Positions 4,476-51,101 of a stretch of 53,227 bases of DNA are shown here, in pieces. Numbering within the stretch: the stretch's first letter is position 1; each line of letters begins with the position of its first letter. Where the stretch lies: assembly GCA_014161675.1 (NCBI GenBank), contig GCA_014161675.1_4760.2, one strand, 5' to 3'. Under the pieces are notes generated by a model. It saw only the letters and a program-made list of their open reading frames with translations. It did not search any database and was not told where the DNA came from. This DNA comes from a phage. The translations under genes and the position numbers were made by a program.

Positions 4476-7400
4476 ATGGCAGATTTTTCTCAACATTTCA
4501 AGGCCACATTTGGCTTTGACGCTGGTAATGAAAAGGTCGTCAATGTAGCATTGGCTGATAAGAATGTCAACACCGATGCGGTCAACGTTGAATTTTTCAA
4601 TTACCATAATGGTATTACTCAGTATGACACAACTCGCGGTTATGATCAATACGGAACTACAATCTATCAAAACCGTCCGTATTATGCAAAAGAAGATATC
4701 ACAAAGCCAGCAGGAGATTTTGACCCGACTAAATGGCAAGCACTGCGCACGGACCCACGTTGGGATTATATTGCAGCAACTTCCGGTGATACTCCTTTAC
4801 AGTCTGGCGATTATATCGCAGCAGATGGTCAATTTGCAAACTTGACTTTCTCTATGCCAACTAAACCAGCAGAGGGAGACACTATAACAGTAAAAGATAT
4901 CGGTGGCAAGTGTGGTGTTAACGAATTATCGTTCTTGAGTACAGGACATGAGTTTTACCATAATGGTAATGTGTATAACAGAAAATGGTATTGCACTACC
5001 CCGTATGCAATGAACTATTTCATCTTTGTTCGGAATCGTTGGCATGTTTATCAGACAGGAACAGAGCCACGCGGTGTGTACGCACAGCCAGCGATTGATG
5101 CTATTCAAATGCAGAATGGTGATCAGGTATTTCGTCGTAGTTCGTTGGGTAATATTACCTTAGTGCTTCCTAAGTTTGCCAACAATGGCGACATGATCCA
5201 GACTACAGACCTTGACGGATTAACCGCAACCAACCACGTTACGGTTAAAGTTCATGAGCACGCAGAAGAACAATCAATTGGCACGTCCGGTCTAAAAGAG
5301 ATTATCGGTAAGCGTAGCGGTCATGGTGTATTCATCTTTGACAAGACGGAAAACTTATGGCGTTTGTGGGATGGTGATCAGTCTGTTCGTCTTAAACCGA
5401 TCATCAATGACACTCGCTTGCAACCTAATAGCTATGTTGCTGTATTTGGTGGTCGTGATGTTACTCTGACGCTGCCGACCAATGTCGAGCCGGGTGATCG
5501 TATTCAAGTTTCTATGCAGTATATGCACGGAAACCAGAATTGCCGTATTATCACCGCCACAGAGGATACAAAAATCCTTATGTCGAAAAACATGGTTCAG
5601 TTTCCGAAGCGTAGCGAGTACCCATTCAACGGGACCGACACATGGAAGGAAGTGTCTGAATTGTCGTTCAATGCGGCTAGTGATTATGTACCTTATCTGG
5701 AGTTCTCTTATTCAGAAGGTGATGATGGTAAGAAACATTGGCTGGTAGCACACGCTCATCCGATCGTAGAACGAGTAGATCCGACTCGTAAAGCGCGTGT
5801 CGGTGTAATTGCACTGGCTACCCAGACTGAAACGAATAAAAACCATGAAGAGAATCCTAGCGACGAAGTTGCAGTAACACCAAAAATGCTGGCTAATAAA
5901 ACCGCCAACGAAACTCGACGCGGTATTGCTCGCATTGCGACTCAGGCGGAAACGCATCAAGATACTGGTTCCATCTTCCTGGATGATGTTATCGTTACGC
6001 CTAAAAAGTTAAATGACTGTGTTGCTACCGAAGCCCGTCGTGGTGTGATGGAAATTGCAACCCAGCACGAAACCAATGAAGGTTTAGATGATACCCGCGC
6101 TATTACTCCTAAGAAATTAGAAGAACGTCGCGCTTCCGAAGATCTCGCTGGTATTGCTGAAATTGTTCAGGCTGGCGGTAGTGCTGCCGCTCGACGTGGC
6201 GAAGCTGGTACAGGGATCTATAACATCAACGACCATGTTAAAATTGTTACGCCACAAAACATCAACGAAGTCAAGGCGACCGAAACTTCCCGTGGTGTTG
6301 GCTATCTGGCAACTGACGCGGAAGTGCAAGGGGCTACAGAATCAACCCCGCAAGATGCTTTACTAATCACGACTCGCACGCTAACGAAACGTACTGCTAC
6401 AGAATCGCGTACTGGTATCGCTGAAATTGCAACTCAGGAAGAAACAAACTTAGGTCAAAGTGATAACCATATCATCACGCCTAAAAAGCTGCATACTCGC
6501 CGCGCAACGGAAACTTTACATGGTTTAGCAGAAATTGCAACTCAGACGGAATTTGACGCAGGTCTTGACGATTCTCGCATTTCTACCCCATTGAAGATTA
6601 AAACCTTCTTTGAGAATGCACAGCGTTTGAAAGTAGATCCGACTCAGGGGCTTAACCTTACTGGTGATTTGTGGCAAGGTATCATGATCAGCGGTCTGGA
6701 TGCAACCGAAGACACAAAAGGTGTCGCTAAAGTTGCTACTACTCAGCTTACGGATGCTGGTCAAGATGATACTACAATCATCACGCCTAAAAAGCTGCAA
6801 GGCAAAAAAGCCACCGAAGGTAAAGAAGGCATTATCCGAGTTGGTACTCAAGCCGAAACCGTGGCTGGTATTATGGACAATGTAGCAATTTCTCCGAAGA
6901 ACTTCAAATATGTTGTTCAGACAGAGGATACATGGAAAGCAACCGAAGCGCGTCGTGGCTTCTTGAAAGTTGCTACTCAGGAAAACTGTTTTGTTGGTGA
7001 TAATCTGCAAGGTTCTACTCAAGAACTAGGAAACTACCAGCATGACGGAATTGCTGTTACTCCGAAAGGATTAAACTACGCACTTGCTAATTTCTTACCT
7101 AAGATGGCAACCGCTCAGAATAGTTTGAAATTGGGTAACGTAGAGGCCGCTAAATGGGCGCGTAGAGACATTGACCAGACCATAGAGAGCAATTATACGT
7201 TTAATAAAAACGTTAACGTGAAGGGCGATTTAGAGTGCTTAAAATCTGGTTCCTTTGAAACTCTGTCTGTGACTAAGAACTCGACCGATGTTCCGAGTAA
7301 TGGTCATCTGGTATTGGGTGAGCGTGGAGTTGACGGTCACACCGGAATTACTCTGCATGGCACAACCGCATCGGAAGGCATGAAAAACTCTTGGTCTATT

Positions 7401-8216
7401 ATCGTTGGTGGTACTGGAACAGCGCAAGTTGTTGATAGTGATGCTATCGCTTTCGGTAAAATCAATGATGGTGGAGTCGTTGAGCATTACGCCTTTGCTA
7501 TGAAACACAATGGCGACGCGACAGCATATCGAGACTTTATTGCAGGTCGTAACCTGTATGCGAAACAAGGCGGTTTATACATTGTTGACCAGTCTAATCC
7601 GGCAATGACTCGTTCCCCAGATGGTATGCTGAATATCGGTCACGGTGGAAGTGTTAACATCAAGGCAGGGCATCAAACGTTAACTACAGAGATCGCCGGA
7701 CAGAAGTATCAGATCGTACATGCAGGAAACGCTGACGAAGTTCTTAACCGTCAGTTTGTTAAGAATGCTGGCGATACAATGGTCGGTAAGCTGACTATGG
7801 ATAATGCGCCTATTGTTTCTGTTAAGCATGAAGCTAGCGCGGCAACCGCTCCGGCAATCGGTAACATCGGTTTCTGGAATATGCGAGTTACTACCCAGAA
7901 CATCAAAGAAACTTATCCAGAGAAGAAAAACGGTACTCTGATGCAATGGGGTACTGACGCGGACGGGCTTACCCAGCTTTGGTCCCCTGATGGTACTCAT
8001 AAACATTATATCCGTTCCGGTACTGGTGGTCAATGGACCGCATGGGGTGAAATTTACACCAAACAGAACAAGCCTACCGCTCAGGAAATTGGGGCAGTGG
8101 TTGCCGAAGGTGGTTTGATGAACTCTATGACGGTTCGTGATTGGATCAAAGTTGGTAATGTTAAAATCATCGCCAATAATCTGACTCGTACCGTAGACTT
8201 TATCTGGGAAGACTAA
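4476..8216 (+). CDS. 34: Long tail fibre proximal subunit gp34
   Basis: 1246 aa; recalled T4 gp34 similarity (LPKFANNGD, FPKRSEYP, repeated ITPKKL / GIAEIATQ modules, C-terminal IGAVV...DFIWED). Confidence 0.93.
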   Translation: MADFSQHFKATFGFDAGNEKVVNVALADKNVNTDAVNVEFFNYHNGITQYDTTRGYDQYGTTIYQNRPYYAKEDITKPAGDFDPTKWQALRTDPRWDYIAATSGDTPLQSGDYIAADGQFANLTFSMPTKPAEGDTITVKDIGGKCGVNELSFLSTGHEFYHNGNVYNRKWYCTTPYAMNYFIFVRNRWHVYQTGTEPRGVYAQPAIDAIQMQNGDQVFRRSSLGNITLVLPKFANNGDMIQTTDLDGLTATNHVTVKVHEHAEEQSIGTSGLKEIIGKRSGHGVFIFDKTENLWRLWDGDQSVRLKPIINDTRLQPNSYVAVFGGRDVTLTLPTNVEPGDRIQVSMQYMHGNQNCRIITATEDTKILMSKNMVQFPKRSEYPFNGTDTWKEVSELSFNAASDYVPYLEFSYSEGDDGKKHWLVAHAHPIVERVDPTRKARVGVIALATQTETNKNHEENPSDEVAVTPKMLANKTANETRRGIARIATQAETHQDTGSIFLDDVIVTPKKLNDCVATEARRGVMEIATQHETNEGLDDTRAITPKKLEERRASEDLAGIAEIVQAGGSAAARRGEAGTGIYNINDHVKIVTPQNINEVKATETSRGVGYLATDAEVQGATESTPQDALLITTRTLTKRTATESRTGIAEIATQEETNLGQSDNHIITPKKLHTRRATETLHGLAEIATQTEFDAGLDDSRISTPLKIKTFFENAQRLKVDPTQGLNLTGDLWQGIMISGLDATEDTKGVAKVATTQLTDAGQDDTTIITPKKLQGKKATEGKEGIIRVGTQAETVAGIMDNVAISPKNFKYVVQTEDTWKATEARRGFLKVATQENCFVGDNLQGSTQELGNYQHDGIAVTPKGLNYALANFLPKMATAQNSLKLGNVEAAKWARRDIDQTIESNYTFNKNVNVKGDLECLKSGSFETLSVTKNSTDVPSNGHLVLGERGVDGHTGITLHGTTASEGMKNSWSIIVGGTGTAQVVDSDAIAFGKINDGGVVEHYAFAMKHNGDATAYRDFIAGRNLYAKQGGLYIVDQSNPAMTRSPDGMLNIGHGGSVNIKAGHQTLTTEIAGQKYQIVHAGNADEVLNRQFVKNAGDTMVGKLTMDNAPIVSVKHEASAATAPAIGNIGFWNMRVTTQNIKETYPEKKNGTLMQWGTDADGLTQLWSPDGTHKHYIRSGTGGQWTAWGEIYTKQNKPTAQEIGAVVAEGGLMNSMTVRDWIKVGNVKIIANNLTRTVDFIWED
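5868..7030 (+). repeat. Intragenic tandem repeat array in gene 34 (about 9-10 units of about 38-40 codons)
   Basis: Repeated protein unit TE.RRG.A.IATQ.E...G.DD..I.TPKKL. At DNA level an exact 23-nt copy ATCATCACGCCTAAAAAGCTGCA occurs at 6471-6493 and 6777-6799, with further GAAATTGCAAC(T/C)CAG copies. Confidence 0.8.
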
Positions 8217-8249: not shown

Positions 8250-9389
8250 ATGACACAAGATATAGAATTACGCAATACTGGAATTAGGTTTGCGCATTTC
8301 GACGAAGACTCTGCGACATTTACCAGCATTTCAGAAAATAACTCTGTGATGTATAAGCTGGAAGTGCGCGGATCTAATGCGGATTCTACCAAACCAGCAA
8401 GGATTAGATTTAATGGAGTGGAGATCGTTGGCGCTGGCTATGAAAATGGCCTAAATTTGAAAGTTCTTACTCCAACTGGACAACTACACGAAGAAAAGGT
8501 ATTCTATGGTCGCGGTGCTGTTTTGGCAATGCGTGATTATCTTTCTTTGCTGAAAGGTGATTATATCATTGCGATGGCAACTCATGGAGAATTGTTTGCA
8601 GATCCGATAAGTGATGTTGTATTTTCTAAGATGGGATCTGTATCATTCCCGAATCATATTTTGTTACAGCAAATGCCTCGCGTATCCTATGCAGCAATTT
8701 ATTCTACTAAAATGGGTAAAATTGTGTGCGAAGGGATGCAAGCGACCAACGGGGAAGGACAAGATTCATCTATACAAATTGAGAAAGTCTATGATACTAT
8801 AGATGATCTTGCTATAACAGGAACACCACAACGATTTTTAGATTATCCGGTTGAGTATGTTAGCGAAGATGCCGAACATTTCGAGCTAATACAATGGCCT
8901 CATGATGAGACCAGCGCCCCACTTGAGGATTTTAACATAAAGGCAGGTGACAAACTATCAATATCATTTGAATTGTTCCGTGATAGTGCCGCAGCCGCAG
9001 CCAACGTAACAGCGCGTTTCTATCACAACTACTTCACCGATGGACAATATAAAACTGGTGTTCGATACAATGCCAGCAAAAAAGACCAATGGGAAAAGTT
9101 TGAAGCCGTCTATACCGTACCGGAAGGAGTTGATAGTGTAGTAACTGGTTGTATCAGATATCCAACCAACTCCAATGAAGGTATTGTTAAAATTAGAAAC
9201 ATACTAATAACGCCGATCAGTGGAGTCGTCAAAACTACTGGTCCTACTTCATTTGGTGTTAATGGTGTCAGAACAACTCATATTCAGGATAACGGTGATT
9301 TTACTAACCCTGTAATGAGTCTTCTTAAACTTCCTAGAGATAATAAACACATCACATCCAACAACTTTAAAGAGTTCGATGTTGATTAA
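8250..9389 (+). CDS. 35: Long tail fibre hinge connector gp35
   Basis: 379 aa; position after 34 and a C-terminal FGVNGVR motif recalled from T4 gp35. Confidence 0.8.
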   Translation: MTQDIELRNTGIRFAHFDEDSATFTSISENNSVMYKLEVRGSNADSTKPARIRFNGVEIVGAGYENGLNLKVLTPTGQLHEEKVFYGRGAVLAMRDYLSLLKGDYIIAMATHGELFADPISDVVFSKMGSVSFPNHILLQQMPRVSYAAIYSTKMGKIVCEGMQATNGEGQDSSIQIEKVYDTIDDLAITGTPQRFLDYPVEYVSEDAEHFELIQWPHDETSAPLEDFNIKAGDKLSISFELFRDSAAAAANVTARFYHNYFTDGQYKTGVRYNASKKDQWEKFEAVYTVPEGVDSVVTGCIRYPTNSNEGIVKIRNILITPISGVVKTTGPTSFGVNGVRTTHIQDNGDFTNPVMSLLKLPRDNKHITSNNFKEFDVD

Positions 9390-9550: not shown

Positions 9551-9558
9551 TATAAATA
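9551..9558 (+). promoter_or_regulatory. T4-type late promoter (TATAAATA) for gene 36
   Basis: Exact TATAAATA 35 bp upstream of the gene 36 ATG at 9593. Confidence 0.6.
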
Positions 9559-9592: not shown

Positions 9593-11083
9593 ATGGCAGA
9601 TTTGAAATATGGATCTACTGTAGGTGGATCTCCCATTTGGACGCAAGGAAACTTGACGATCCAGCCAGCGGGGGATCAGCTTTTCTACAAAGGTCATAAA
9701 ATCTATACCGCTTTTGATAGACCTTCGGCTACCGATTTTGATGCTGTTAGTGCATCCGAAGGTGGCACATTTCAAAAGCAAGTTCATTTCGAGGAAGGTT
9801 TAAGCGTAGGTAGCGCATCGGCTGGAGAAACCAAAAAGAATGGTATCTTTAAAGGTCAGAGCGACGCTGCTAATTTTGACGGCGTAAGCTGGGGTTTGCA
9901 TTCATGGAAGTCAATCGGCTTTGTTAATGCCCGTGATGGCGTTATCATGGCGTATATTGACACCACAACGGGCGAATTTAAGTCTAAAGGGACTATCGAA
10001 GGGACAACCATTAAAGACACAGGTCAACGCGTCTATAGCCCTGTTAATAAACCAACGAATAATGATTTAGATTTGGTGTCTCGTCGCGGTGATACCCTAA
10101 CAGGAACATATAATTTAAACACTGTCACTGTTAAACTATCGGTTGATTCGAAATTAATTGCAAGGGAACGTGATTTAATTAATTTTGATGCGACTAAGAT
10201 CTATTATGGTAACGTTCTTGATACGTTGGTCTTCCGAAGTAAAGATGAGCCTACCATTTTTGTTAATGGCAGAGAAGGTCGTTTTTATCACACCAACAAT
10301 AAACCAACTAAAGCCGATGTTGGGCTAGGCAATGTCACCAATGATGCACAGGTTAAACGTGCTGGTGATATTATGGAAGGTAACTTGCAAGCGCCTAGAA
10401 TGTTGGCGACAAACGATCCTGCTGGTCCTAATGAATTGGTTCGTTTGAGCTACTTTGAGAGAAAATCAATGGTAGCAAATCCAACCATCATTGGAAACGT
10501 TGATTGGAACACTCTTATTAATCGCGGTATCTATCGTGTGGAAAATGCTGGGTCGGGTACTAATAAACCGTCCGATAGCTATTATAACGGCGTTTTGATG
10601 GTATATCGCCCAGAAGATGCGGTCGGTACTCGTCGAATTGTTCAGGTGTATTATCCTGAATCTATTGACCATCCGATGTGCTGGCGTTCGTGTTCTAATG
10701 AATCATGGACTGCATGGAACTATGTAGATCACCGTAAATTAGCAGATATTCGCTATGTTAACGTAACTGGCGATACCATGACAGGACCGTTAACTGTTCC
10801 GGCTGCAAACGGTGTTAGAACGGCTAGAGGTGCATATAATGGTGATAACTACTATGCCGGGTTAAATAGTGCTGATGGTACTGCTATGATTCACCGTATC
10901 AGCGATATTAAAGCCACCGAAAAATTGGGTATTACACATGATTCTAAAGCTGTTTTCATTAAATCGCGTGGAAATACTCAAGACACAGACCGCTATGAAC
11001 TTTACCACGAAGGCCATAAACCGACACCCGCAGAGGTCGGCGCGGTTCCACTTAATGCGGTGATTGATTTTGGTACTTTCTAA
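9593..11083 (+). CDS. 36: Long tail fibre distal subunit gp36 (enlarged)
   Basis: 496 aa; N-terminus MADLKYGSTVGGSPIWTQGNL resembles recalled T4 gp36 (MADLKVGSTTGGSVIWHQGN). Contains KPT..(D/E).G motifs. More than twice the T4 length. Confidence 0.8.
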   Translation: MADLKYGSTVGGSPIWTQGNLTIQPAGDQLFYKGHKIYTAFDRPSATDFDAVSASEGGTFQKQVHFEEGLSVGSASAGETKKNGIFKGQSDAANFDGVSWGLHSWKSIGFVNARDGVIMAYIDTTTGEFKSKGTIEGTTIKDTGQRVYSPVNKPTNNDLDLVSRRGDTLTGTYNLNTVTVKLSVDSKLIARERDLINFDATKIYYGNVLDTLVFRSKDEPTIFVNGREGRFYHTNNKPTKADVGLGNVTNDAQVKRAGDIMEGNLQAPRMLATNDPAGPNELVRLSYFERKSMVANPTIIGNVDWNTLINRGIYRVENAGSGTNKPSDSYYNGVLMVYRPEDAVGTRRIVQVYYPESIDHPMCWRSCSNESWTAWNYVDHRKLADIRYVNVTGDTMTGPLTVPAANGVRTARGAYNGDNYYAGLNSADGTAMIHRISDIKATEKLGITHDSKAVFIKSRGNTQDTDRYELYHEGHKPTPAEVGAVPLNAVIDFGTF

Positions 11084-11153: not shown

Positions 11154-13937
11154 ATGGCAGATTTAAGCAGAATCCAATTTAAACGCACTAGCACTAAAGG
11201 TCGTAAACCTGATGCTAGTGCGATGAATCCTGGGGAATTGGCAATCAACCTTGCGGATCAATATCTTCTTACTAAAAATGATTCCGGTACTATTATCAAT
11301 TTAAGTTGTCCTCCGGTTTATGACCGCGATGTTACAATGGCGGGTAAGGTTAAAGGTAATAATTATATCTTAAGTAAAACCGCTAACTATCTGGAAGATC
11401 AGACAGCGAGAGATCTTAACTACTTTGGCGCTTTCCGTACCAATGGTCTTGATGGTCTTCTCGAACTCACGCTAAACGTTCCTCACTCTTCCGGTGTCCA
11501 ACATGGTCGAGGATTTACTTTCCAGTATGGACATACTGGATCACGAGTAGAAACCTATGGATATAATAGAGAAGGTCAAAAAGCATTTAGCTATAAAATG
11601 TATCACGAAGGTGATAAACCAACTCCAGGAGAATTGAACGTCTATAGCAAACAAGAAATTGACCGTATGTTTGTTAAGAACGTTAAAATGGTTGTTCCTT
11701 CTGGTGGTGCAACCCGTGGTTATTTTAAAATTGCATCCGCAATAATCCCGCAGAGTGGTCGGATGGCGTTTCTGCGAATCTATGGTGGTAATGGATATAA
11801 TGTAAACTCATATGATCAAGTTGATTTTCTTGAAATTGTTATTCGTAGTGGTAATAATAACCCTAAAGGCGTTAGTATTGCTGCATATCGTCGAAATTCT
11901 TTGAACGTCCACGAAGTATTTGCAATTAATACTTCCGGGGATAACTATGACATTTATGTTAACTATGGTCGTTACACCGATAACGTTATTGTAGAGTTTG
12001 GAAAAACTGTTGATGTTGCATTGACTGTTCACGATGTTCCTGAATTTTCGGCGACTAAACCAGCAACCGGAACTAAATTTGATGCTCGTGTTATTACGAT
12101 GTTCAACACCGAAAACAAAGCCGGAACGTTGATGTTTGATAATAACAATCAGTTAACCTATGATATTGTTAGCCTTAGCAATGGTCCTGATGATGTTAGA
12201 AATTATCTGCGTAAATTCCGAAGTAAAGCGGGTGAAATGATTTGGCATGAAACAGTTCAGGGTGCTGTATATCGTCTTGCTACTGGAACTACTGATTCTA
12301 CGGAAGTTCTTAGAGTTGATTCTAATAGTGCTATACCCGGTAGTTATAAAGGATATGTAATTACTGGTAAAATGGAATTGCATGGTAGTGGTAATTCGAT
12401 GATTTTACATCGCCAGACTGCTCAAGCCGCGTACATGTCGTGGTGGGATCGTCGTGATGGCAAAAACCAACGTAGCGGTTATATCGGTCATGCAGATGGG
12501 ACTAGTGATGCTATTGTGTGGAATAATGATATTGGACAAAACAGTGTTGTTCTAGAAACATCTGGTCAAATATCTTTCAGAACAGGTGAAACCAAAATTG
12601 TATATACCAACGGACAATATTATTCCGCTAACTCTGATGCATACCGTATGATCTTTGGTAATTACGGTGCATTCTGGCGTAATGACGGCACTAAAGTTTA
12701 TCTTCTGTCTACTGCTGAAAACGATAAATTTGGTGGTTGGAATGGTTATCGTCCATTCATTTATGATTTAACTTCCGGTAACGTTCAATTAGGCGGTGAT
12801 GGTAACGAAGAAGCATTAACGTTAGAACGTGCTTCTCGTGCCGCTCGCTTTAGTAATGACGTTTACATTAAGAAAGGGCATTTGACTTTCGACGCTGGGC
12901 GATTAAATTCCCGCGATTACTTCCGGTTTAACCATTGGGGCGATAGCAATAACGGTCGTGATAACATTCTATATCTAGAAGACAGTAAAGGTCGACATTT
13001 TAGCACCGAGCGTAATATGGCAACGGGTGCATTAAAAGCCGACTTCTTAGGCGATCTTGAAGTTGGTGGTAAGTTGATATGGGGTAAGAATACCGGACAA
13101 TCTAGCTTCAATATTCGTGCATGGGGTAATGATTCTCGTAAGCAAGTATTAGAATGCGCGGATGAAAGTGGTTGGCATTGGTATACCGAACGTACTGCGG
13201 GTGGCACTGGTCCGATTAAGTTCTCTGTTGCAGGTTCTTTCCATAGCGCAAGTGATGTTAACGTAGGCGGTAGTCTGAATTTTGGTAATGCTATTCAACG
13301 CGGCGCTAGCGTCATTACTATAGCTTCTAGTTCTGCTGGTGCTGGTTCTTTTGCATCTCAACATGATGATAACGTCAAAGCACCTATTTTCCAACGTTTA
13401 GACCGTGGTGATGCGTCTACATATGTTCCTTTGATTAAGCAACGTTATGTTCAAGGTGCAGTAACATTCTCGTTGGGTATGCTTCTTAACGAAGGTTCAT
13501 GGCGAGTTCATGTTAAAGGTTCTGGTGTTGAATCTAATACTACCTTCTATAAAAACGGCGATTTCCAAGCTGGACGCAATGGTAACTTTAACGACGTTTA
13601 CATTCGCTCTGATGCTCGCCTTAAAATCAATAAGGAAGAGTATAAAGAGAATGCCACTGATAAAGTTAATCGCTTGACTGTATACACCTACGATAAGGTT
13701 AAATCTTTAACTGACCGTACTGTCATTGCTCATGAAGTTGGTATTATTGCTCAGGATCTTGAGAAAGAATTGCCGGAAGCAGTAACAACTTCTAACATCG
13801 GCGATCCTGATAAGCCAGAAGAGATCTTAACAATTTCTAACTCTGCTGTCAACGCTCTTTTAATTAAGGCGTTTCAGGAAATGAGCGAAGAACTTAAAGC
13901 CGTTAAAGCTGAACTAGCGGAACTTAAAAAGAATTAA
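11154..13937 (+). CDS. 37: Long tail fibre distal subunit gp37 with C-terminal intramolecular chaperone (peptidase S74-type) domain
   Basis: 927 aa; recalled T4 gp37 similarity (IQFKR...KGRKP, AGAGSFASQ, DVKAPIFQRLDRGDASTYVPLIKQRYVQG). C-terminus carries YIRS-DARLK and HEVGIIAQDLEKELPEAV, the signature of autoproteolytic fibre chaperone domains. Predicted cleavage after Ser819 (codon 13608-13610). Confidence 0.9.
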   Translation: MADLSRIQFKRTSTKGRKPDASAMNPGELAINLADQYLLTKNDSGTIINLSCPPVYDRDVTMAGKVKGNNYILSKTANYLEDQTARDLNYFGAFRTNGLDGLLELTLNVPHSSGVQHGRGFTFQYGHTGSRVETYGYNREGQKAFSYKMYHEGDKPTPGELNVYSKQEIDRMFVKNVKMVVPSGGATRGYFKIASAIIPQSGRMAFLRIYGGNGYNVNSYDQVDFLEIVIRSGNNNPKGVSIAAYRRNSLNVHEVFAINTSGDNYDIYVNYGRYTDNVIVEFGKTVDVALTVHDVPEFSATKPATGTKFDARVITMFNTENKAGTLMFDNNNQLTYDIVSLSNGPDDVRNYLRKFRSKAGEMIWHETVQGAVYRLATGTTDSTEVLRVDSNSAIPGSYKGYVITGKMELHGSGNSMILHRQTAQAAYMSWWDRRDGKNQRSGYIGHADGTSDAIVWNNDIGQNSVVLETSGQISFRTGETKIVYTNGQYYSANSDAYRMIFGNYGAFWRNDGTKVYLLSTAENDKFGGWNGYRPFIYDLTSGNVQLGGDGNEEALTLERASRAARFSNDVYIKKGHLTFDAGRLNSRDYFRFNHWGDSNNGRDNILYLEDSKGRHFSTERNMATGALKADFLGDLEVGGKLIWGKNTGQSSFNIRAWGNDSRKQVLECADESGWHWYTERTAGGTGPIKFSVAGSFHSASDVNVGGSLNFGNAIQRGASVITIASSSAGAGSFASQHDDNVKAPIFQRLDRGDASTYVPLIKQRYVQGAVTFSLGMLLNEGSWRVHVKGSGVESNTTFYKNGDFQAGRNGNFNDVYIRSDARLKINKEEYKENATDKVNRLTVYTYDKVKSLTDRTVIAHEVGIIAQDLEKELPEAVTTSNIGDPDKPEEILTISNSAVNALLIKAFQEMSEELKAVKAELAELKKN

Positions 13938-13978
13938 GGAAACTCCCAGGGAAGGGAACTACTAAGGAGAAAACGGCT

Positions 13979-14218
13979 ATGGTCTATAATATCGTCATTG
14001 GTGCTTTGTCTAATTTCGGAATGAAATTATTGTCAAAGTTAATTAGTGAAAAGATGCTCACTAAAATTTTCTTCTATTGCGCTCGTCGTCTTGCGGCTTA
14101 TACCAATACGCCAATTGATGATCGTTTTGTGGAAGAACTTTATAAGGAGTTTAATAAAGATCAGTCAGAAGATAGTAACGAGCAAGATAAACCTAGTGAT
14201 AGTCAACTACCTAAATAA
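13979..14218 (+). CDS. Hypothetical protein (79 aa) between gene 37 and holin t
   Basis: ORF with AAGGAGA upstream; occupies the slot where gene 38 sits in T4 but shows no recognisable gp38 similarity. Confidence 0.45.
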   Translation: MVYNIVIGALSNFGMKLLSKLISEKMLTKIFFYCARRLAAYTNTPIDDRFVEELYKEFNKDQSEDSNEQDKPSDSQLPK

Positions 14219-14251: not shown

Positions 14252-14908
14252 ATGCAAGTTTCTGAAAAAGAGAAAGACTTTGCTATCTCAAATGTCCTGC
14301 GCGCTATTTTCACAACTAAAAGCACGGAGTTGCTCGTACTTCGTGTTTTTGCTGCCGTCGTGTTGTCCATATTAGCATTTGTCGTTTATAGTAAAAACGA
14401 GTTATTTGCGCTTTATAAAGAGACTCGTTATGAGACTTATGCTCACATTCTCCAGGTAGAGAAAGACCGCAATTTTGATAATGCAGCACAGGAGCAGTTA
14501 CAGATAGTTCATGTGTCGGCTGATGCCGATTTTTCTGCTGTTTTTAGTTTTCGTCCGAAAAACCTAAACTATTTTGTTGATTTGGTGGCATATGAAGGAA
14601 AGCTACCGCATACAATCGATGAAAAAAATTTAGGCGGATTCCCTATCAATAAAACGAGTGAAGAATATCGTAGGCATCTTTTAGGTAAATCATATTTTAC
14701 CGATAAAGATTTCCAGTATATTCCATCAAGAGAAAAGAAATTAGAGAATATCGATATAGGTTTCATGTATTCTTGTCCTATATTCAATCTCGATAATGTC
14801 TATTCTGGTAGTATCGCCATTTCATGGAAGAATAAACCGGATATTGACATTGAGAATTTAGATACTCTTTGCAATCAATCTGCCAGAATCCTCGGAAGGA
14901 TTAGATAA
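14252..14908 (+). CDS. t: Holin T
   Basis: 218 aa; recalled T4 holin similarity (YETY, LQIVHVSADADFSAVFSFRPKNLNYFVDLVAYEGKLP, MYSCPIFNLDNVYSG, ARILGR). Confidence 0.9.
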   Translation: MQVSEKEKDFAISNVLRAIFTTKSTELLVLRVFAAVVLSILAFVVYSKNELFALYKETRYETYAHILQVEKDRNFDNAAQEQLQIVHVSADADFSAVFSFRPKNLNYFVDLVAYEGKLPHTIDEKNLGGFPINKTSEEYRRHLLGKSYFTDKDFQYIPSREKKLENIDIGFMYSCPIFNLDNVYSGSIAISWKNKPDIDIENLDTLCNQSARILGRIR

Positions 14909-17203: not shown

Positions 17204-17962
17204 TTACTTGCAAACGTATTGATCTACATCAATTGCTCCACCGAATGTGGGATGACGTTTTTCAAATCGAATAGTTCCGTCGTTTGGTTCGAAAACGGAG
17301 TATTCATATAGATCTTTCTTGCCAACATTCTTATAAAACCCGCCTTTAGTCATAACGGTTTCTTGTACGTTTGCTTTGTGTACGTTGTATTCGTCAATGT
17401 ATACAAAATCAACCATCTTCCCATTTTTAATGGTTACTTTAAGATCTCCTGGTTGATTTCCATATTTGGCATACAGTGGCGCTTCTTTAATTTTTGTGGA
17501 AATTCCATCTTTCATACTCCACTCATAACGAACGGTGCATTGATAGGTAAAAGTTTCGACCTTCGGTTCTTCCACCACTTTTTCTTCCTGTTTCGGTTGT
17601 TCTTCGTCAACCTTCACGGAAGTCTCTGAATCGCTTTCTGACGCAGTTTCTTCTTTAGGTAATACATTCATCAAGTTTTGGATTTGAGCGTTGTATACAG
17701 CCTCCAGTGGCTGAATCTGCCCGATATTGATCATTGTATCACGAACAGTTTTATTCCAGTTGCGTTGCTCTTGTTTCAGAGACGGATCAATCTTAACAGC
17801 TTTAACATATACTTCATGAAGTTTAGAGTCCAGTGCGGAGATTGACTCATTAGCACAAATAAACTTCTCTGATTTGGTAGTAGCTTTAGCGCAATCAAAG
17901 GACGCAGCATTAGCACCGAAAGCAGTAGCGGAAAGAACGATAGCAGCGATAATGTTTTTCAT
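17204..17962 (-). CDS. Secreted LprI-like protein (DUF1311-like N-domain plus Cys-bracketed C-terminal domain)
   Basis: 252 aa. Signal peptide MKNIIAAIVLSATAFGANA. Then ASFDCAKATTKSEKFICANESISALDSKLHEVY...QEQRNWNKTVRD, matching the DUF1311/LprI N-domain pattern. Ser/Glu-rich linker, then a C-terminal domain bracketed by Cys (YQCTVRY...QYVCK). Confidence 0.7.
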   Translation of the reverse strand: MKNIIAAIVLSATAFGANAASFDCAKATTKSEKFICANESISALDSKLHEVYVKAVKIDPSLKQEQRNWNKTVRDTMINIGQIQPLEAVYNAQIQNLMNVLPKEETASESDSETSVKVDEEQPKQEEKVVEEPKVETFTYQCTVRYEWSMKDGISTKIKEAPLYAKYGNQPGDLKVTIKNGKMVDFVYIDEYNVHKANVQETVMTKGGFYKNVGKKDLYEYSVFEPNDGTIRFEKRHPTFGGAIDVDQYVCK

Positions 17963-26740: not shown

Positions 26741-26768
26741 ATTATAGAGAATCTCCCTTGTATGTCAA
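26741..26768 (-). promoter_or_regulatory. Sigma70-type early promoter
   Basis: Minus strand TTGACA (26763-26768), 16-bp spacer, TATAAT (26741-26746), flanked by the GGGAGA/TCTCCC inverted repeat. The -35 overlaps the stop of the HNH gene. Confidence 0.6.
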
Positions 26769-27328
26769 CTAAAATTTAAAGATGCAAACTCCCCGTGATG
26801 AATTTTTGCATATTCATCATATGCTCTAGCGGCTTCCTCCTGAGTAGCAAACGATCCTATGTATTTTCTGTATCCGTTTATCCTTATTTGTGCTTGCCAC
26901 GGTCTTTTGCTAGATCCTTTGCGATGAGTAACACCATTATATATGCTCGTGCACCCGTCCATTTTCTTTTTATTGTACATGTTTTGTTGTTGTGTTGCCT
27001 CCCGTAAATTTGGTGGATTGTTGTTTTCTGGATTCCCGTCTATGTGGTCTATTACCTTAACCTGTGTTCCATATTCAAGAAACCAGACAATTCTATGTAC
27101 AAGATATGTAGATGTTCTCTTTTTAACCTTATTGTAAACATCTATTGCCAAATGACCGTAATTTAACTTTTTTGTTTTTACTTTATCACCGACTCGGTAG
27201 AAATATCCCTCTGGTAGACCATTAAAAGACGGACTATTTGTTTTGTGATATAGAACACCTTCCGTGTGTTCAAATCTGCGTTTTAATTCCTCTTGAATTT
27301 CAGTATTCCAAAATTTCGCACTTTTCAT
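26765..27328 (-). CDS. HNH homing-type endonuclease with C-terminal AP2 DNA-binding domain
   Basis: 187 aa; HNH motif region HRIVWFLEYG...VIDHIDGNPENNNPPNLREAT, then an AP2-like segment YNGVTHRKGSSKRPWQAQIRINGYRKYIGSFATQEEAARAYDEYA. Stop/start are adjacent to gene 39. Confidence 0.85.
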   Translation of the reverse strand: MKSAKFWNTEIQEELKRRFEHTEGVLYHKTNSPSFNGLPEGYFYRVGDKVKTKKLNYGHLAIDVYNKVKKRTSTYLVHRIVWFLEYGTQVKVIDHIDGNPENNNPPNLREATQQQNMYNKKKMDGCTSIYNGVTHRKGSSKRPWQAQIRINGYRKYIGSFATQEEAARAYDEYAKIHHGEFASLNFS

Positions 27329-29427: not shown

Positions 29428-30096
29428 TTATCCCCTTTGTTTCTTAACTGAATTTGGATCTGGATTTTCTGGTAGGTCTTCCAGACCCATAGCATAACGT
29501 TGTGCATAGATTAGCATAAGAATATCGCGAGCGCAATCATGAATTGCATCATGTGCGATAAAACCATCTAGCGTACCCATTGGTAACGGACACTCACACA
29601 TCCCGCGATGCATCAATGTACGCTCAATGGCGGTGCGAACATCTCGGATGTTCCAGAATCGCACAGGTTCAAGATTGAACGTCTCTCGTGTATTGTGTGC
29701 ACGGCGGATCATATCAACTAGTAACGGAATATCAAACGCATTACCGCGTGACCACATTACGGATTTAACCGGATCTACTCCTACGGCTTCACAGAATGCG
29801 TTAAAACGCGCTAAACCTTCTTTAGTTGATACTTCCGTACCATTTGTGATTAATTGCTTTCTCATGCCTTCTGAGGCGGTATTCTTCCACCATTCAACTA
29901 CACCATGATCAAACACCCTTACACCTTTCTGGGAAGGAATATCAAATTTTACCAGAAAGGAATTGTCAACCAGTTCTTTAAATGTAGGTGGGTTGTGCGG
30001 ATCTTCTTTAAATCCGATTGCCGCCATATTGATCACCGCCCCATCAGGCGGATAACCTAAACTTTCAAAGTCAATCATTAAATCCACTGGAAGCAT
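29428..30096 (-). CDS. dexA: Exonuclease A (DexA)
   Basis: Recalled T4 DexA similarity (IDFESLG, KFDIPSQKG, EWWKN, FDIPLLVDMIR, FNLEPVRFWNIRD, CPLPMGTLDGFIAHDAIHDCARDILM, RYAMGLED). Start set at the Met of MLPVDLMIDFE. Confidence 0.85.
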   Translation of the reverse strand: MLPVDLMIDFESLGYPPDGAVINMAAIGFKEDPHNPPTFKELVDNSFLVKFDIPSQKGVRVFDHGVVEWWKNTASEGMRKQLITNGTEVSTKEGLARFNAFCEAVGVDPVKSVMWSRGNAFDIPLLVDMIRRAHNTRETFNLEPVRFWNIRDVRTAIERTLMHRGMCECPLPMGTLDGFIAHDAIHDCARDILMLIYAQRYAMGLEDLPENPDPNSVKKQRG

Positions 30097-45350: not shown

Positions 45351-45377
45351 ATCACCTTTATCATGTTAATCAATTAA

Positions 45378-45755
45378 TTATGGGTTTACTGCGTGTTCGT
45401 TACGAATCTTGAGCATTTTGTTTTGGAAGTTTTCCGCAGCTTGCTCATCAATAGTATGAGTATATCTGAATCCAATGTATGCCGTCAAGTATTGTTGCAG
45501 AGCATAGACAGTAACAGGATTCTTTGCGGTCTTCTTGCCTTCGAGATATACCAGATCCCCGCAAGGTTCAAAAGCAAGTTTACGACGAATCACATTATCA
45601 ACAAACTCATCAACAACAAAATGCCAAATGTTGCTATCGGTTCCAATATCAAAATTAACCACACTGCCACGTTTGACATAATCAAACGGTATCGGGAATA
45701 GTTTATAGTCAAGTTCGATAAACATTAATTGTTCTTTTAAGCTCATACGTTTCAT
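45378..45755 (-). CDS. Hypothetical protein, positional counterpart of T4 rpbA
   Basis: Start trimmed to the Met of MKRMSL to avoid overlap with the upstream gene. Assignment by position and size only. Confidence 0.45.
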   Translation of the reverse strand: MKRMSLKEQLMFIELDYKLFPIPFDYVKRGSVVNFDIGTDSNIWHFVVDEFVDNVIRRKLAFEPCGDLVYLEGKKTAKNPVTVYALQQYLTAYIGFRYTHTIDEQAAENFQNKMLKIRNEHAVNP

Positions 45756-45759
45756 TCTA

Positions 45760-46152
45760 TCACTTCCCATCAGCAATTGCGATCAGACGAGTTACTACTA
45801 CGCTAGCGGCTTCAATCAGCAGTTCATCAGTGTCAATCTGATAACCTTTTTCGAGAATATCTTTACCTCGAATAGTTTTAGCGCCTTTAGCAATTGAATC
45901 ATCGTAATACTTGCGCATTGCAGCGATCCATTCTTTTTGCACCATATCATCAATATGCGCGTACAGTTCAAAGCGTGCTTGCTGCGGGATAACCTTCATT
46001 TTAGCTTTCTCGCTTTCTGGCATTTGTAGTACCCACGCTTTACGGATCTTGTTCATTGCTCTGTCAAATTCGAGACTGGTTTTCTTGTTCTGAATGTCTG
46101 CTACAGTAATTTTAGCCAGGTTTGCGGAAGTAGTCATAATATTAATCTCCAA
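45760..46152 (-). CDS. Hypothetical protein (130 aa)
   Basis: ORF between 46 and 45. Confidence 0.45.
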   Translation of the reverse strand: MEINIMTTSANLAKITVADIQNKKTSLEFDRAMNKIRKAWVLQMPESEKAKMKVIPQQARFELYAHIDDMVQKEWIAAMRKYYDDSIAKGAKTIRGKDILEKGYQIDTDELLIEAASVVVTRLIAIADGK

Positions 46153-46167
46153 AATAAAATCAGTATA

Positions 46168-46398
46168 TCACGTTCTAAAGTTTGTTGCAACCCCAGCATC
46201 AGGGTAATCAAGTTTATCAAAGTTGGGGACCAGCATAAACTCATGATGACGGCAAGACAACATTTTTGTTATGTCTTCATCGCTGTATATGCTGTTTTTC
46301 ATATCCCCCATACTAACTACATATTCTTCACCGGAATATAGATTGATTAAGGTATACAATTCTAACTCCGGCTGCGTTACTCTGTCAAATGTTAACAT
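46168..46398 (-). CDS. Hypothetical protein (76 aa)
   Basis: ORF; its start overlaps the gene 46 stop. Confidence 0.4.
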   Translation of the reverse strand: MLTFDRVTQPELELYTLINLYSGEEYVVSMGDMKNSIYSDEDITKMLSCRHHEFMLVPNFDKLDYPDAGVATNFRT

Positions 46399-49462: not shown

Positions 49463-50488
49463 CTAACTTTTTGCGCTATTTACCTCGGCTAAAAGTTCAT
49501 CAGAAATACGCTTGACCGCCGCAAGTTCTTCCGGTTCTAGGTTTTGTTCTTCCAGATATTCATAGACCATCTGAATAGTGCTTTTAACTTCAATAACACC
49601 TGTTTCCTGTGATGCGCTACTCTCCAGCTTATGGACCACTTTTAGCTTGTGTACAACGGCCTCTAACGCGCTTTCTAACTTAGTTAACCCATTATCAGCG
49701 ACCGTTGCGATAAGACGCACACTAAGCCCCTTAAAGCGTTCTACATCGATTTTATCATCTGACGGGTAAGTGATACGCACATGATAAGTTTTCTCATTCT
49801 GGATAAACTCCTTTTTGTGTGTATCGGTATCGAATACCCAAAAACCACGCGGATCGTTTTCGTCACCAGCCGTTAGTGTGTATGGTGTACCAATATACGT
49901 TACGTTACCGCCATCACTGATAGTATGAAAGTGACCAGAAAACACTTCACGGTATTTCTTGAGGAAGTCCGCGCTATAACCTTCTGATTTTAGCCCTTTA
50001 TAGAAATAGTAACCGGACAATTCCCAATGGCCTACACAATATTCGCTGAATGAGTTTTGAATAAACTCTAAAATCTCTGATTTATTGTCATCACAAAACC
50101 ACGGGAACAGATCAAATGATACACCATCAAAGGTAACTGTTTCCGGTTTATCGATAACCTTAATGCAATCATACTGGCTTAACACTTCACGCGGTGCGTT
50201 AGGCTGGATCTTATTGCGCTTAAACATATCATGATTCCCGACCGTGATATAACAAGTAATACCAGCCTCTTCCAGTAACGGAATGACCTTAGTGCGGTTA
50301 AATTTCATGGTTTCATGGGTAATTGCTTTTCGGCAATCAAACCAATCTCCTGTTTGAATCCATGTCTTAATATTATGCTCTTTGGAGTATTCAACCGCTT
50401 TCTTGATGGTATCAAGAATATACTCGTGCACCCACGGATCATCGCCACCGATACCAGTATGCAGATCACCTAAAAGCAAAATTTTCAT
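49463..50488 (-). CDS. 47: Recombination nuclease gp47 (Mre11/SbcD-like)
   Basis: 341 aa; calcineurin-like phosphoesterase motifs (LLLGDLHTG, QTGDWFD, GNHD, GHFH). Confidence 0.92.
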   Translation of the reverse strand: MKILLLGDLHTGIGGDDPWVHEYILDTIKKAVEYSKEHNIKTWIQTGDWFDCRKAITHETMKFNRTKVIPLLEEAGITCYITVGNHDMFKRNKIQPNAPREVLSQYDCIKVIDKPETVTFDGVSFDLFPWFCDDNKSEILEFIQNSFSEYCVGHWELSGYYFYKGLKSEGYSADFLKKYREVFSGHFHTISDGGNVTYIGTPYTLTAGDENDPRGFWVFDTDTHKKEFIQNEKTYHVRITYPSDDKIDVERFKGLSVRLIATVADNGLTKLESALEAVVHKLKVVHKLESSASQETGVIEVKSTIQMVYEYLEEQNLEPEELAAVKRISDELLAEVNSAKS

Positions 50489-50532
50489 AGTCTCTTCCTC
50501 TCTTCGTTTTCGATGCTCTCACTATATCACAG

Positions 50533-50560
50533 AAAAATAAAAAGGGAAACCCTTTTCAGA
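50533..50560 (-). terminator. Rho-independent terminator upstream of gene 47
   Basis: Minus strand GAAAAGGG-TTTC-CCTTTTT followed by ATTTTTCT. Confidence 0.7.
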
Positions 50561-50578
50561 GTCTCCCTTATAAAGCCA

Positions 50579-50866
50579 TTACAGCATACTTAATACCGTT
50601 TGCCGTGTACTAATCCACATAGCAGAAAGCAGTTCTGGCGTGTGTGGCTGTTTGTAGATATCACGTAATTTTCCGATAGCGTAGATATACGCATCACGGT
50701 TATCATCGATGATAGCTTGTTCAGCCCACCGCTTAAGGCGTGCAATCTCTTGCGAGTTCTTACGCAAGATCTTTTCCGCTTTCTTAGCGGCTTTAGCCTC
50801 TAGTTCTGCTTGTACTTTGTCTACTTCATTCACCGCAATCTGGTCATGCTGTTCATCGTAAGTCAT
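50579..50866 (-). CDS. Hypothetical protein (95 aa)
   Basis: ORF between 55 and 47. Confidence 0.45.
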   Translation of the reverse strand: MTYDEQHDQIAVNEVDKVQAELEAKAAKKAEKILRKNSQEIARLKRWAEQAIIDDNRDAYIYAIGKLRDIYKQPHTPELLSAMWISTRQTVLSML

Positions 50867-50867
50867 G

Positions 50868-51101
50868 TTATTTTCCTTCTGGGATATAGTCGATGATTAA
50901 AGAAAATTCATCTTCTGATACATTATAGCTATGTGAGATTGTACCCGTCAAGACCTCAAGATCCGGTGATTTGATATTGCACGGATCGATAATCACCGGA
51001 ACGCCGCAATCTCTCAAAAATAATTTGGCGAAATACGGCACGAGGTCAGTTTCAAACTCTGCTTCTTCCAGCAAACGGGAAATGTTAATTTTCAATCTCA
51101 T
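50868..51101 (-). CDS. Hypothetical protein (77 aa)
   Basis: ORF occupying the slot where T4 carries alpha-gt. Confidence 0.4.

Follow-up and report, generated by a model that had tools for sequence, protein, structure and literature searches.

Where is the receptor-binding adhesin encoded when a T-even-type long tail fibre has no adhesin gene beside it? The question is raised by a 53,227-nucleotide stretch of phage DNA (NCBI GenBank assembly GCA_014161675.1, contig GCA_014161675.1_4760.2), referred to here in its entirety as the window. Its gene 37, for the distal subunit of the long tail fibre, ends in a domain of the self-cleaving chaperone type, and no gene 38, for the adhesin gp38, follows it. 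An earlier note, made from the letters alone, had taken gp38 to be missing and had placed receptor specificity in gp37. Its description of a self-cleaving-type chaperone domain stands, whereas the missing gp38 and the specificity in gp37 do not; the former fails because absence from the window differs from absence from the genome. We consider, with a probability of about 0.9, that the locus encodes a T2/S16-type long-tail-fibre tip in the gene arrangement of RB49 (Krischvirus), with gp38 encoded ~55 kb away.

Megablast places the window in Krischvirus, the RB49-like genus of the Straboviridae. A 25-kb stretch of replication genes is 98.0–98.5% identical to FL38, kaaroe, RB49 and other Krischvirus genomes, with 98.5% for FL38, and the region from gene 37 to the small open reading frame (ORF) downstream of it, orf79, has 92% DNA identity to FL38 and 90.5% to RB49. 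No database record identical to the window was found among the megablast matches; the window therefore represents a new isolate of a well-sampled genus. The parts of the window that bear on the fibre tip are as follows, with lengths in amino acids (aa).

11154–13937, + strand: gp37 ORF, 927 aa
11154–13607, + strand: predicted mature gp37, residues 1–818, 90.5 kDa, the distal half-fibre shaft (phrog_1699, “long tail fiber protein distal subunit”, E = 1e-156)
13221–13544, + strand: polymorphic distal gp37 module, residues ~690–797, in the short form that we call type B (from identity comparisons)
13545–13607, + strand: conserved terminal block F798–R818 (FYKNGDFQAGRNGNFNDVYIR), the predicted gp38 docking end (from alignment and the S16 structure)
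13608–13937, + strand: intramolecular chaperone/Peptidase_S74, residues 819–927, 12.2 kDa, and the stop codon; a putative S819/K824 dyad, then a C-terminal helix
13979–14218, + strand: 79-aa ORF (the “Dc5” region of RB49), candidate member of the PM2 gp l family; matches phrog_402 (E = 5e-20)

Within the window, the earlier observation that no gp38-like gene follows gene 37 is correct. The gene 37 stop codon is followed by a 41-bp gap, the 79-aa ORF and the holin gene t. Six-frame tblastn of the window with RB49 gp38 and a prophage Gp38_N protein, at relaxed settings, gave a best E value of 0.4, and a Pfam scan detected no GP38 domain in mid-sized ORFs of the window. Hence, the window lacks the gene 38 that lies directly downstream of gene 37 in T2 and S16. 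This is a known exception in Krischvirus: displacement of gene 38 was described for RB49 (Trojet 2011), and a 2026 preprint on five phages of the genus places gene 38 ~55 kb downstream from gene 37 (bioRxiv 10.64898/2026.04.02.716166).

The window stops short of the distant locus. Gene 38 of RB49, which is RB49p079 and stands between RB49p078 and RB49p080, occupies positions 45367–46143 on the minus strand. The end of the window is equivalent to RB49 position 29673, which puts the expected site of gene 38 ~15.5 kb beyond the window. In the closest genome, that of FL38, position 146230 corresponds to the window end, and an “adhesin protein” with Pfam GP38 (E = 4e-70) and Gp38_N (E = 4e-18) domains is encoded at 161725–162510. 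By tblastn, all five phages with a type B tip (FL38, kaaroe, MIZ2, MIZ3 and MIZ6) carry a gp38 at least 99.6% identical to that of FL38; in FL38, kaaroe and MIZ6, the type B phages for which coordinates were compared, gene 38 is ~55 kb from gene 37. More generally, the best gp37 matches reappear without exception (25/25) among the gp38 hits, and wherever coordinates were compared the separation is again ~55 kb. A gp38 homologue elsewhere in the genome is what the earlier note had named beforehand as contradicting its claim that gp38 is missing, and one is present in every close relative examined. We infer that the part of the present genome beyond the window also includes gp38.

The displaced gp38 cassette was read in RB49 (46130–46230) and in the FL38 locus (L003, 15560–16640). 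It sits between the stop codon of an upstream ORF and an early-type promoter, TTGACA-N17-TATAAT, and is flanked by two terminator-like hairpins (GCCCCTTAATTGGGGC-TTTT upstream and GGGCTATCCTTCGGGGTAGCC-TTTTTT downstream). The T4-type late promoter motif TATAAATA was not found near the distant gp38 in FL38 or RB49; the nearest copy in RB49 is 2.6 kb upstream, before rI.

What does the C-terminus of gp37 look like? Pfam Peptidase_S74 (PF13884, “chaperone of endosialidase”) matches residues 819–878 over the full model (positions 1–58 of 58; E = 1.5e-11; 44.8 bits, against a cut-off of 22 bits). Codon 13608–13610 (TCT) encodes Ser819 in the context NFNDVYIR-SDARLK (continuing as NFNDVYIR-SDARLKINKEEY), which gives the S-D-x-R-x-K motif of the family as S819-D-A-R-L-K824. 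S819, D820, R822 and K824 are invariant in alignments of 15 and of 39 sequences, and the domain as a whole is 97–100% identical within Krischvirus. Sequence comparison matches the C-terminal part of gp37 to only one solved structure, that of gp37 from Salmonella phage S16 (6f45_A, E = 1.2e-5), in which SSDRRIKK aligns with RSDARLKI of the window protein. The earlier note had recognized this motif at Ser819 and the type of chaperone, and the full-model match, the homology to S16 and the invariant S819 and K824 bear it out. The downstream signature that it described is also present, as E861-V-G863-I-I865-A866-Q867-DLEKEL-P874-E875-A-V877, with six residues between Q and P rather than the four written, a trivial slip. 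The domain shares the fold of solved chaperone domains. It agrees with the chaperone of endosialidase endoNF (PDB 3GW6; PF13884/MEROPS S74) in Pfam family, in fold and in the S-D-x-R-x-K motif, but the passenger is a tail fibre here and a tailspike enzyme in endoNF. The gp37 chaperone domain is thus real at the levels of sequence, profile and fold.

Does the domain cut itself off? Chaperone cleavage has been demonstrated for T2 gp37. In S16, a chaperone of 113 residues is cut off before the conserved serine (PMC7917993). By homology, the cut in the window protein would fall between Arg818 and Ser819, and would therefore yield a mature protein of residues 1–818 (90.5 kDa) and a released domain of residues 819–927 (12.2 kDa). 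By analogy with S16, autoproteolytic cleavage of gp37 probably does take place.

In S16, cleavage exposes a dock that receives three tryptophans from the N-domain of gp38 (PMC7917993; PDB 6F45). The gp38 proteins of RB49 and FL38 retain three Trp residues at a spacing comparable to that in S16 gp38. In the window gp37, the chaperone follows a conserved terminal strand, as in other tips of the T2/S16 type, and the T2-like Yersinia fPS phages, which carry an adjacent gp38, have the identical DVYIR^SD junction (PMC7917993). Across 15 fibres of three tip types, F798, G802, N809, G810 and F812–R818 are invariant. This conservation of the 21 residues before the cut is as expected of a gp38 dock, and the S16 structure suggests that residues 798–818 are the docking end that cleavage would expose.

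By this model, gp37 would be made as a 927-aa precursor of 102.7 kDa, in which the 109-residue C-terminal chaperone domain drives trimerization of the distal beta-structure and then releases itself, by means of a Ser819/Lys824 dyad, through a cut between Arg818 and Ser819. The conserved trimer end thus exposed (...NGNFNDVYIR) would be capped by one gp38 adhesin monomer, whose hypervariable loops would bind an outer-membrane receptor (OmpA in the case of RB49). Docking of gp38 on the gp37 end is proposed by analogy with S16. The S16/T2-type tip (PDB 6F45) is alike in having a chaperone cut at a conserved Ser and a trimer end capped by gp38 through N-terminal Trp-bearing helices, features assigned here by homology; it differs in that gene 38 directly follows gene 37 in S16 and T2. 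Upstream of roughly its last five residues, the window sequence is also unrelated to that of S16. The window gp37 does not have the needle tip of T4-type gp37: it ends in Peptidase_S74, and among solved T4 fibre structures it matches only gp34-type shaft domains.

The closest comparison is the RB49 fibre. The window shares with it the order 34-35-36-37-small ORF-t, a chaperone 97–100% identical, the 79-aa ORF, a 496-aa gp36 and the absence of gp38 from the canonical position. Overall, gp37 has 81% protein identity to RB49 gp37. The difference lies in residues ~690–797, where the window has another module: it is only 22–30% identical to the corresponding region of RB49 and ECD7, which run ~50 aa longer there, and the flanks are 90–100% identical. 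The same residues are essentially identical to FL38 and kaaroe, and the full-length type B module was found in five phage records only, FL38, kaaroe, MIZ2, MIZ3 and MIZ6. In a BLASTP segment spanning tip and chaperone (residues 741–921), gp37 is 52% identical to the C-terminus of the T2-like gp37 of phage FL15, which is directly followed by gp38. We also considered a resemblance of residues 682–819 to the T2 gp37 tip and rejected it: the T2 match falls in a repeated domain of the shaft type close to the T2 gp37 N-terminus, and is therefore uninformative on the tip.

Gene 38 is not always displaced in Krischvirus. FL15 (PP400778.1) has a different, T2-like gene 37 and the order 37-38-orf79-t (locus L040, 7051–11621); its distant site is empty, with 62 bp between the two flanking ORFs (L041, 4128–4701) where FL38 has the gp38 cassette. 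Every genome in which both loci were inspected has exactly one gp38, at either the adjacent or the distant locus. Immediately behind its gp38 stop codon, FL15 still has AAAAAGAATTAA, identical to the final 12 nt of the RB49-type gene 37, which suggests that a T2-like module of 37C and 38 recombined into an RB49-type backbone. A 150-kb contig (L035, 2264–4427) likewise has gp38 adjoining gene 37, in the order 37-38-orf79-t.

Outside Krischvirus, such fibres are also linked to a gp38-type protein. A Gp38_N gene lies ~0.7 kb downstream in all of the 23 prophage-like IMG/VR loci that have a chaperone-bearing gp37-like fibre; a Gp38_N protein thus seems to accompany every fibre that ends in this type of chaperone. 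Prophage-like loci of this kind are on enterobacterial contigs of ~20–45 kb (L004–L028; for example L005, 2086–7817) that have lambda-like tail-tube genes. The fibre, of ~1200 aa, is 57–66% identical overall to Krischvirus gp37 (59–73% in the best segment), matches residues 4–925 and has the same chaperone. The gene before it encodes a protein with a gp36-like C-terminus, and the gene after it a 168-aa protein with a Gp38_N domain and a C-terminal domain that is not polyglycine. These loci are evidence of fibre-module exchange between T4-like and temperate phages. A separate observation concerns a predicted 303-aa E. coli protein on a 25.7-kb contig (P0039; precomputed Pfam domains GP38, Gp38_N and Peptidase_S74), in which gp38's N-terminal attachment domain, a beta-helix and the first glycine-rich motifs are fused to a ...NDVYIR-SDRRLK chaperone. 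It is either a real chimera or an artefact of assembly or frameshift.

Which protein, then, determines the receptor? In T5 pb1, the fibre tip itself binds the receptor, with no separate adhesin cap. If the same held here, no gp38 would exist, the released trimeric end of gp37 would bind the receptor, and specificity would lie in residues ~600–818. We consider this highly improbable, and equally so the specific case in which no gp38 is encoded anywhere and the short type B end, exposed by cleavage, is itself the trimeric adhesin; were it true, a T-even-like fibre would have reverted to the pb1 mode. The relatives of the window differ from pb1 (PDB 4UW8) in having a gp38 cap: gp38 is encoded elsewhere in every close relative, all five phages with the same tip among them, and the only inspected member of the genus without a distant copy, FL15, has an adjacent one. 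The linkage in 23 of 23 homologous fibres from outside Krischvirus argues in the same direction. A self-sufficient tip would have a variable end and no separate adhesin, but residues 798–818 are conserved across tip types. Furthermore, RB49 gp37 has been described as having a self-cleaving chaperone, whose removal is followed by the attachment of a gp38 monomer, and RB49 host-range mutants have substitutions in gp38 only, E230K and Y231S (Golomidova et al. 2022, PMC9569957). Variants of gp38 determine the receptor used by Krischvirus phages (PMC12032242), and the receptor of RB49 is OmpA (bioRxiv 10.64898/2026.04.02.716166). With the residues just upstream of Ser819 conserved and the host-range mutations in gp38, the proposal that specificity lies in that part of gp37 is not supported.

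Three points weigh against a displaced gp38 on a cleaved gp37 dock. The window does not reach the distant locus, and gp38 is therefore not demonstrable for the present phage itself. Cleavage has been shown for S16, and we found no literature report that demonstrates it for gp37 of any Krischvirus. Finally, module 690–797 is polymorphic within the genus, which a view of gp37 as purely a shaft plus a dock leaves unexplained. The second point is what favours a fibre that keeps its C-terminal domain because the chaperone no longer cleaves. We regard such a fibre as extremely improbable: Ser819, Asp820, Arg822, Leu823 and Lys824 show strict conservation and the domain as a whole has 97–100% identity in the genus, which implies selection on the catalytic motif, and a retained domain would block the gp38 dock. 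The third point raises the possibility that specificity has two determinants, with gp38 as the main adhesin and module 690–797 (long in type A, short in type B) adding to host range, which it could do through lateral contacts with lipopolysaccharide or O-antigen, or if it altered how far the tip reaches. The module comes in two or three sharply distinct types, ~25% identical, within flanks that are otherwise 90–100% identical. In addition, FL37, W115 and Delraymugoa, whose gene 37 match is partial (79–80% coverage), have the same gp38 allele as FL38 and kaaroe; if their tips differ, this hints that the gp37 tip and gp38 assort independently. The authors of the RB49 study themselves found it counter-intuitive that a small gp38 recognizes several O-antigens as well as OmpA (PMC9569957). 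Nonetheless, we think a second determinant in gp37 unlikely. Part of the module resembles repeated T-even gp37 shaft domains, with a match near the T2 gp37 N-terminus, and recombination commonly makes fibres mosaic, not necessarily with any functional effect. Neutral mosaicism or a secondary role in host range could account for the module.

If gp38 is encoded elsewhere, what is the 79-aa ORF? The earlier note had it filling the gp38 slot, but the order 37-38-orf79-t in FL15 and L035 places it after gp38 where both are present. Whatever the locus, even where gp38 is adjacent or the fibre gene is a different one, it lies directly upstream of holin gene t, and it has a strong Shine-Dalgarno sequence, TAAGGAG, at 13963–13969. 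A locus search for orf79 in close relatives returned Krischvirus loci only. In three more distant T4-like relatives (L036, 149–4286; L037; L038), a 524-aa protein with a Gp10_C domain follows gp36 in place of a gp37-type fibre, and is itself followed by a gp l-like small ORF and holin t.

Homologues of the 79-aa protein (61–92% identical) carry the precomputed Pfam domain PF26925, Phage_PM2_Gpl. An hhalign comparison of the orf79 family profile with PM2 gp l aligned 41 of 51 residues without gaps (E = 1.6e-4, with a probability of only 51%); a BLASTP comparison with gp l was not significant (E = 0.5), and a local Pfam scan gave no match for the 79-aa ORF. We saw no clear transmembrane segment in it. 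PM2 gp l (P18) aids disintegration of the outer membrane at lysis, and its gene adjoins the PM2 holin gene k. The 79-aa protein and gp l may share a family (PF26925 and profile), and both have a holin neighbour, k in PM2 and t in the window; the Krischvirus protein differs in having an extra acidic tail. Our best guess, held with moderate to low confidence because RB49 also has T4-type spanins, is that the 79-aa ORF encodes an accessory lysis protein rather than a fibre component. The spanins also mean that any role in lysis would be accessory.

The fibre-tip genes are part of a T-even-type long-tail-fibre operon on the + strand. The remaining features of the operon, and one further domain within gp37, are as follows.

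4476–8216, + strand: gp34, fibre operon
8250–9389, + strand: gp35, fibre operon
9551–9558, + strand: T4-type late promoter motif TATAAATA 5ʹ of gene 36 (exact motif match)
9593–11083, + strand: gp36, distal hinge connector, 496 aa (full-length phrog_16472 match; weak match to Pfam Phage_T4_gp36, E = 2.6e-4, below the cut-off)
12429–12764, + strand: Gp34_trimer-like domain in gp37, residues 426–537 (Pfam PF21446, E = 3e-33)
14252–14908, + strand: holin t (Pfam Phage_holin_T, E = 5e-61)

The late motif has only two exact copies in the window, one before gene 34 (4440) and one before gene 36 (9551). T4 biology suggests that both act as promoters, and the copy at 9551 is likely to be the start of a 36-37-orf79-t late transcript. 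T4 gp36 has ~221 aa, and T2 gp36 has 219 aa. The earlier remark that a 496-aa gp36 is more than twice the T4 size is therefore accurate, but this length is typical of Krischvirus: gene 36 is 1491 bp in RB49, FL38 and FL15. NCBIfam supplied no name for gp36, gp37, the 79-aa ORF or gp38. The Gp34_trimer family is named after the C-terminus of the proximal half-fibre, yet the domain is found here within gp37. It matches the T4 gp34 structures 4uxe and 5nxf and also tail fibre S of Mu (5yvq), and is a module that fibre shafts share, not one peculiar to gp34.

Two genes elsewhere in the window, both on the - strand, also deserve mention. A 252-aa protein encoded at 17204–17962 has a signal-peptide-like N-terminus (MKNIIAAIVLSATAFGANA) and a match to the Pfam “lysozyme inhibitor” domain LprI (E = 3e-5); it is kept in RB49 as the hypothetical protein RB49p262. 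At 26765–27328, directly downstream of gene 39, is a homing-endonuclease gene with HNH_3 and AP2 domains; at this position RB49 has only a 66-bp gap. Conversely, the HNH gene beside gene 47 of RB49 has no room in the window (gap 50488–51085). Mobile endonucleases therefore occupy different sites in the two genomes.

What is the significance of this locus? It is an ordinary RB49-type fibre tip, from a new isolate with the rarer, short form of the distal gp37 module. The arrangement was already known from work on RB49 between 2002 and 2011, was re-confirmed between 2022 and 2026, and our analysis leaves the current understanding unchanged. RB49-like phages do not encode their receptor-binding protein next to the tail-fibre genes. 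With gene 38 displaced, a reading limited to a window such as this one, or an automated caller of receptor-binding proteins, would therefore wrongly assign specificity to gp37. Hence, prediction or engineering of host range for RB49-like phages that are candidates for therapy must target the distant gene 38.

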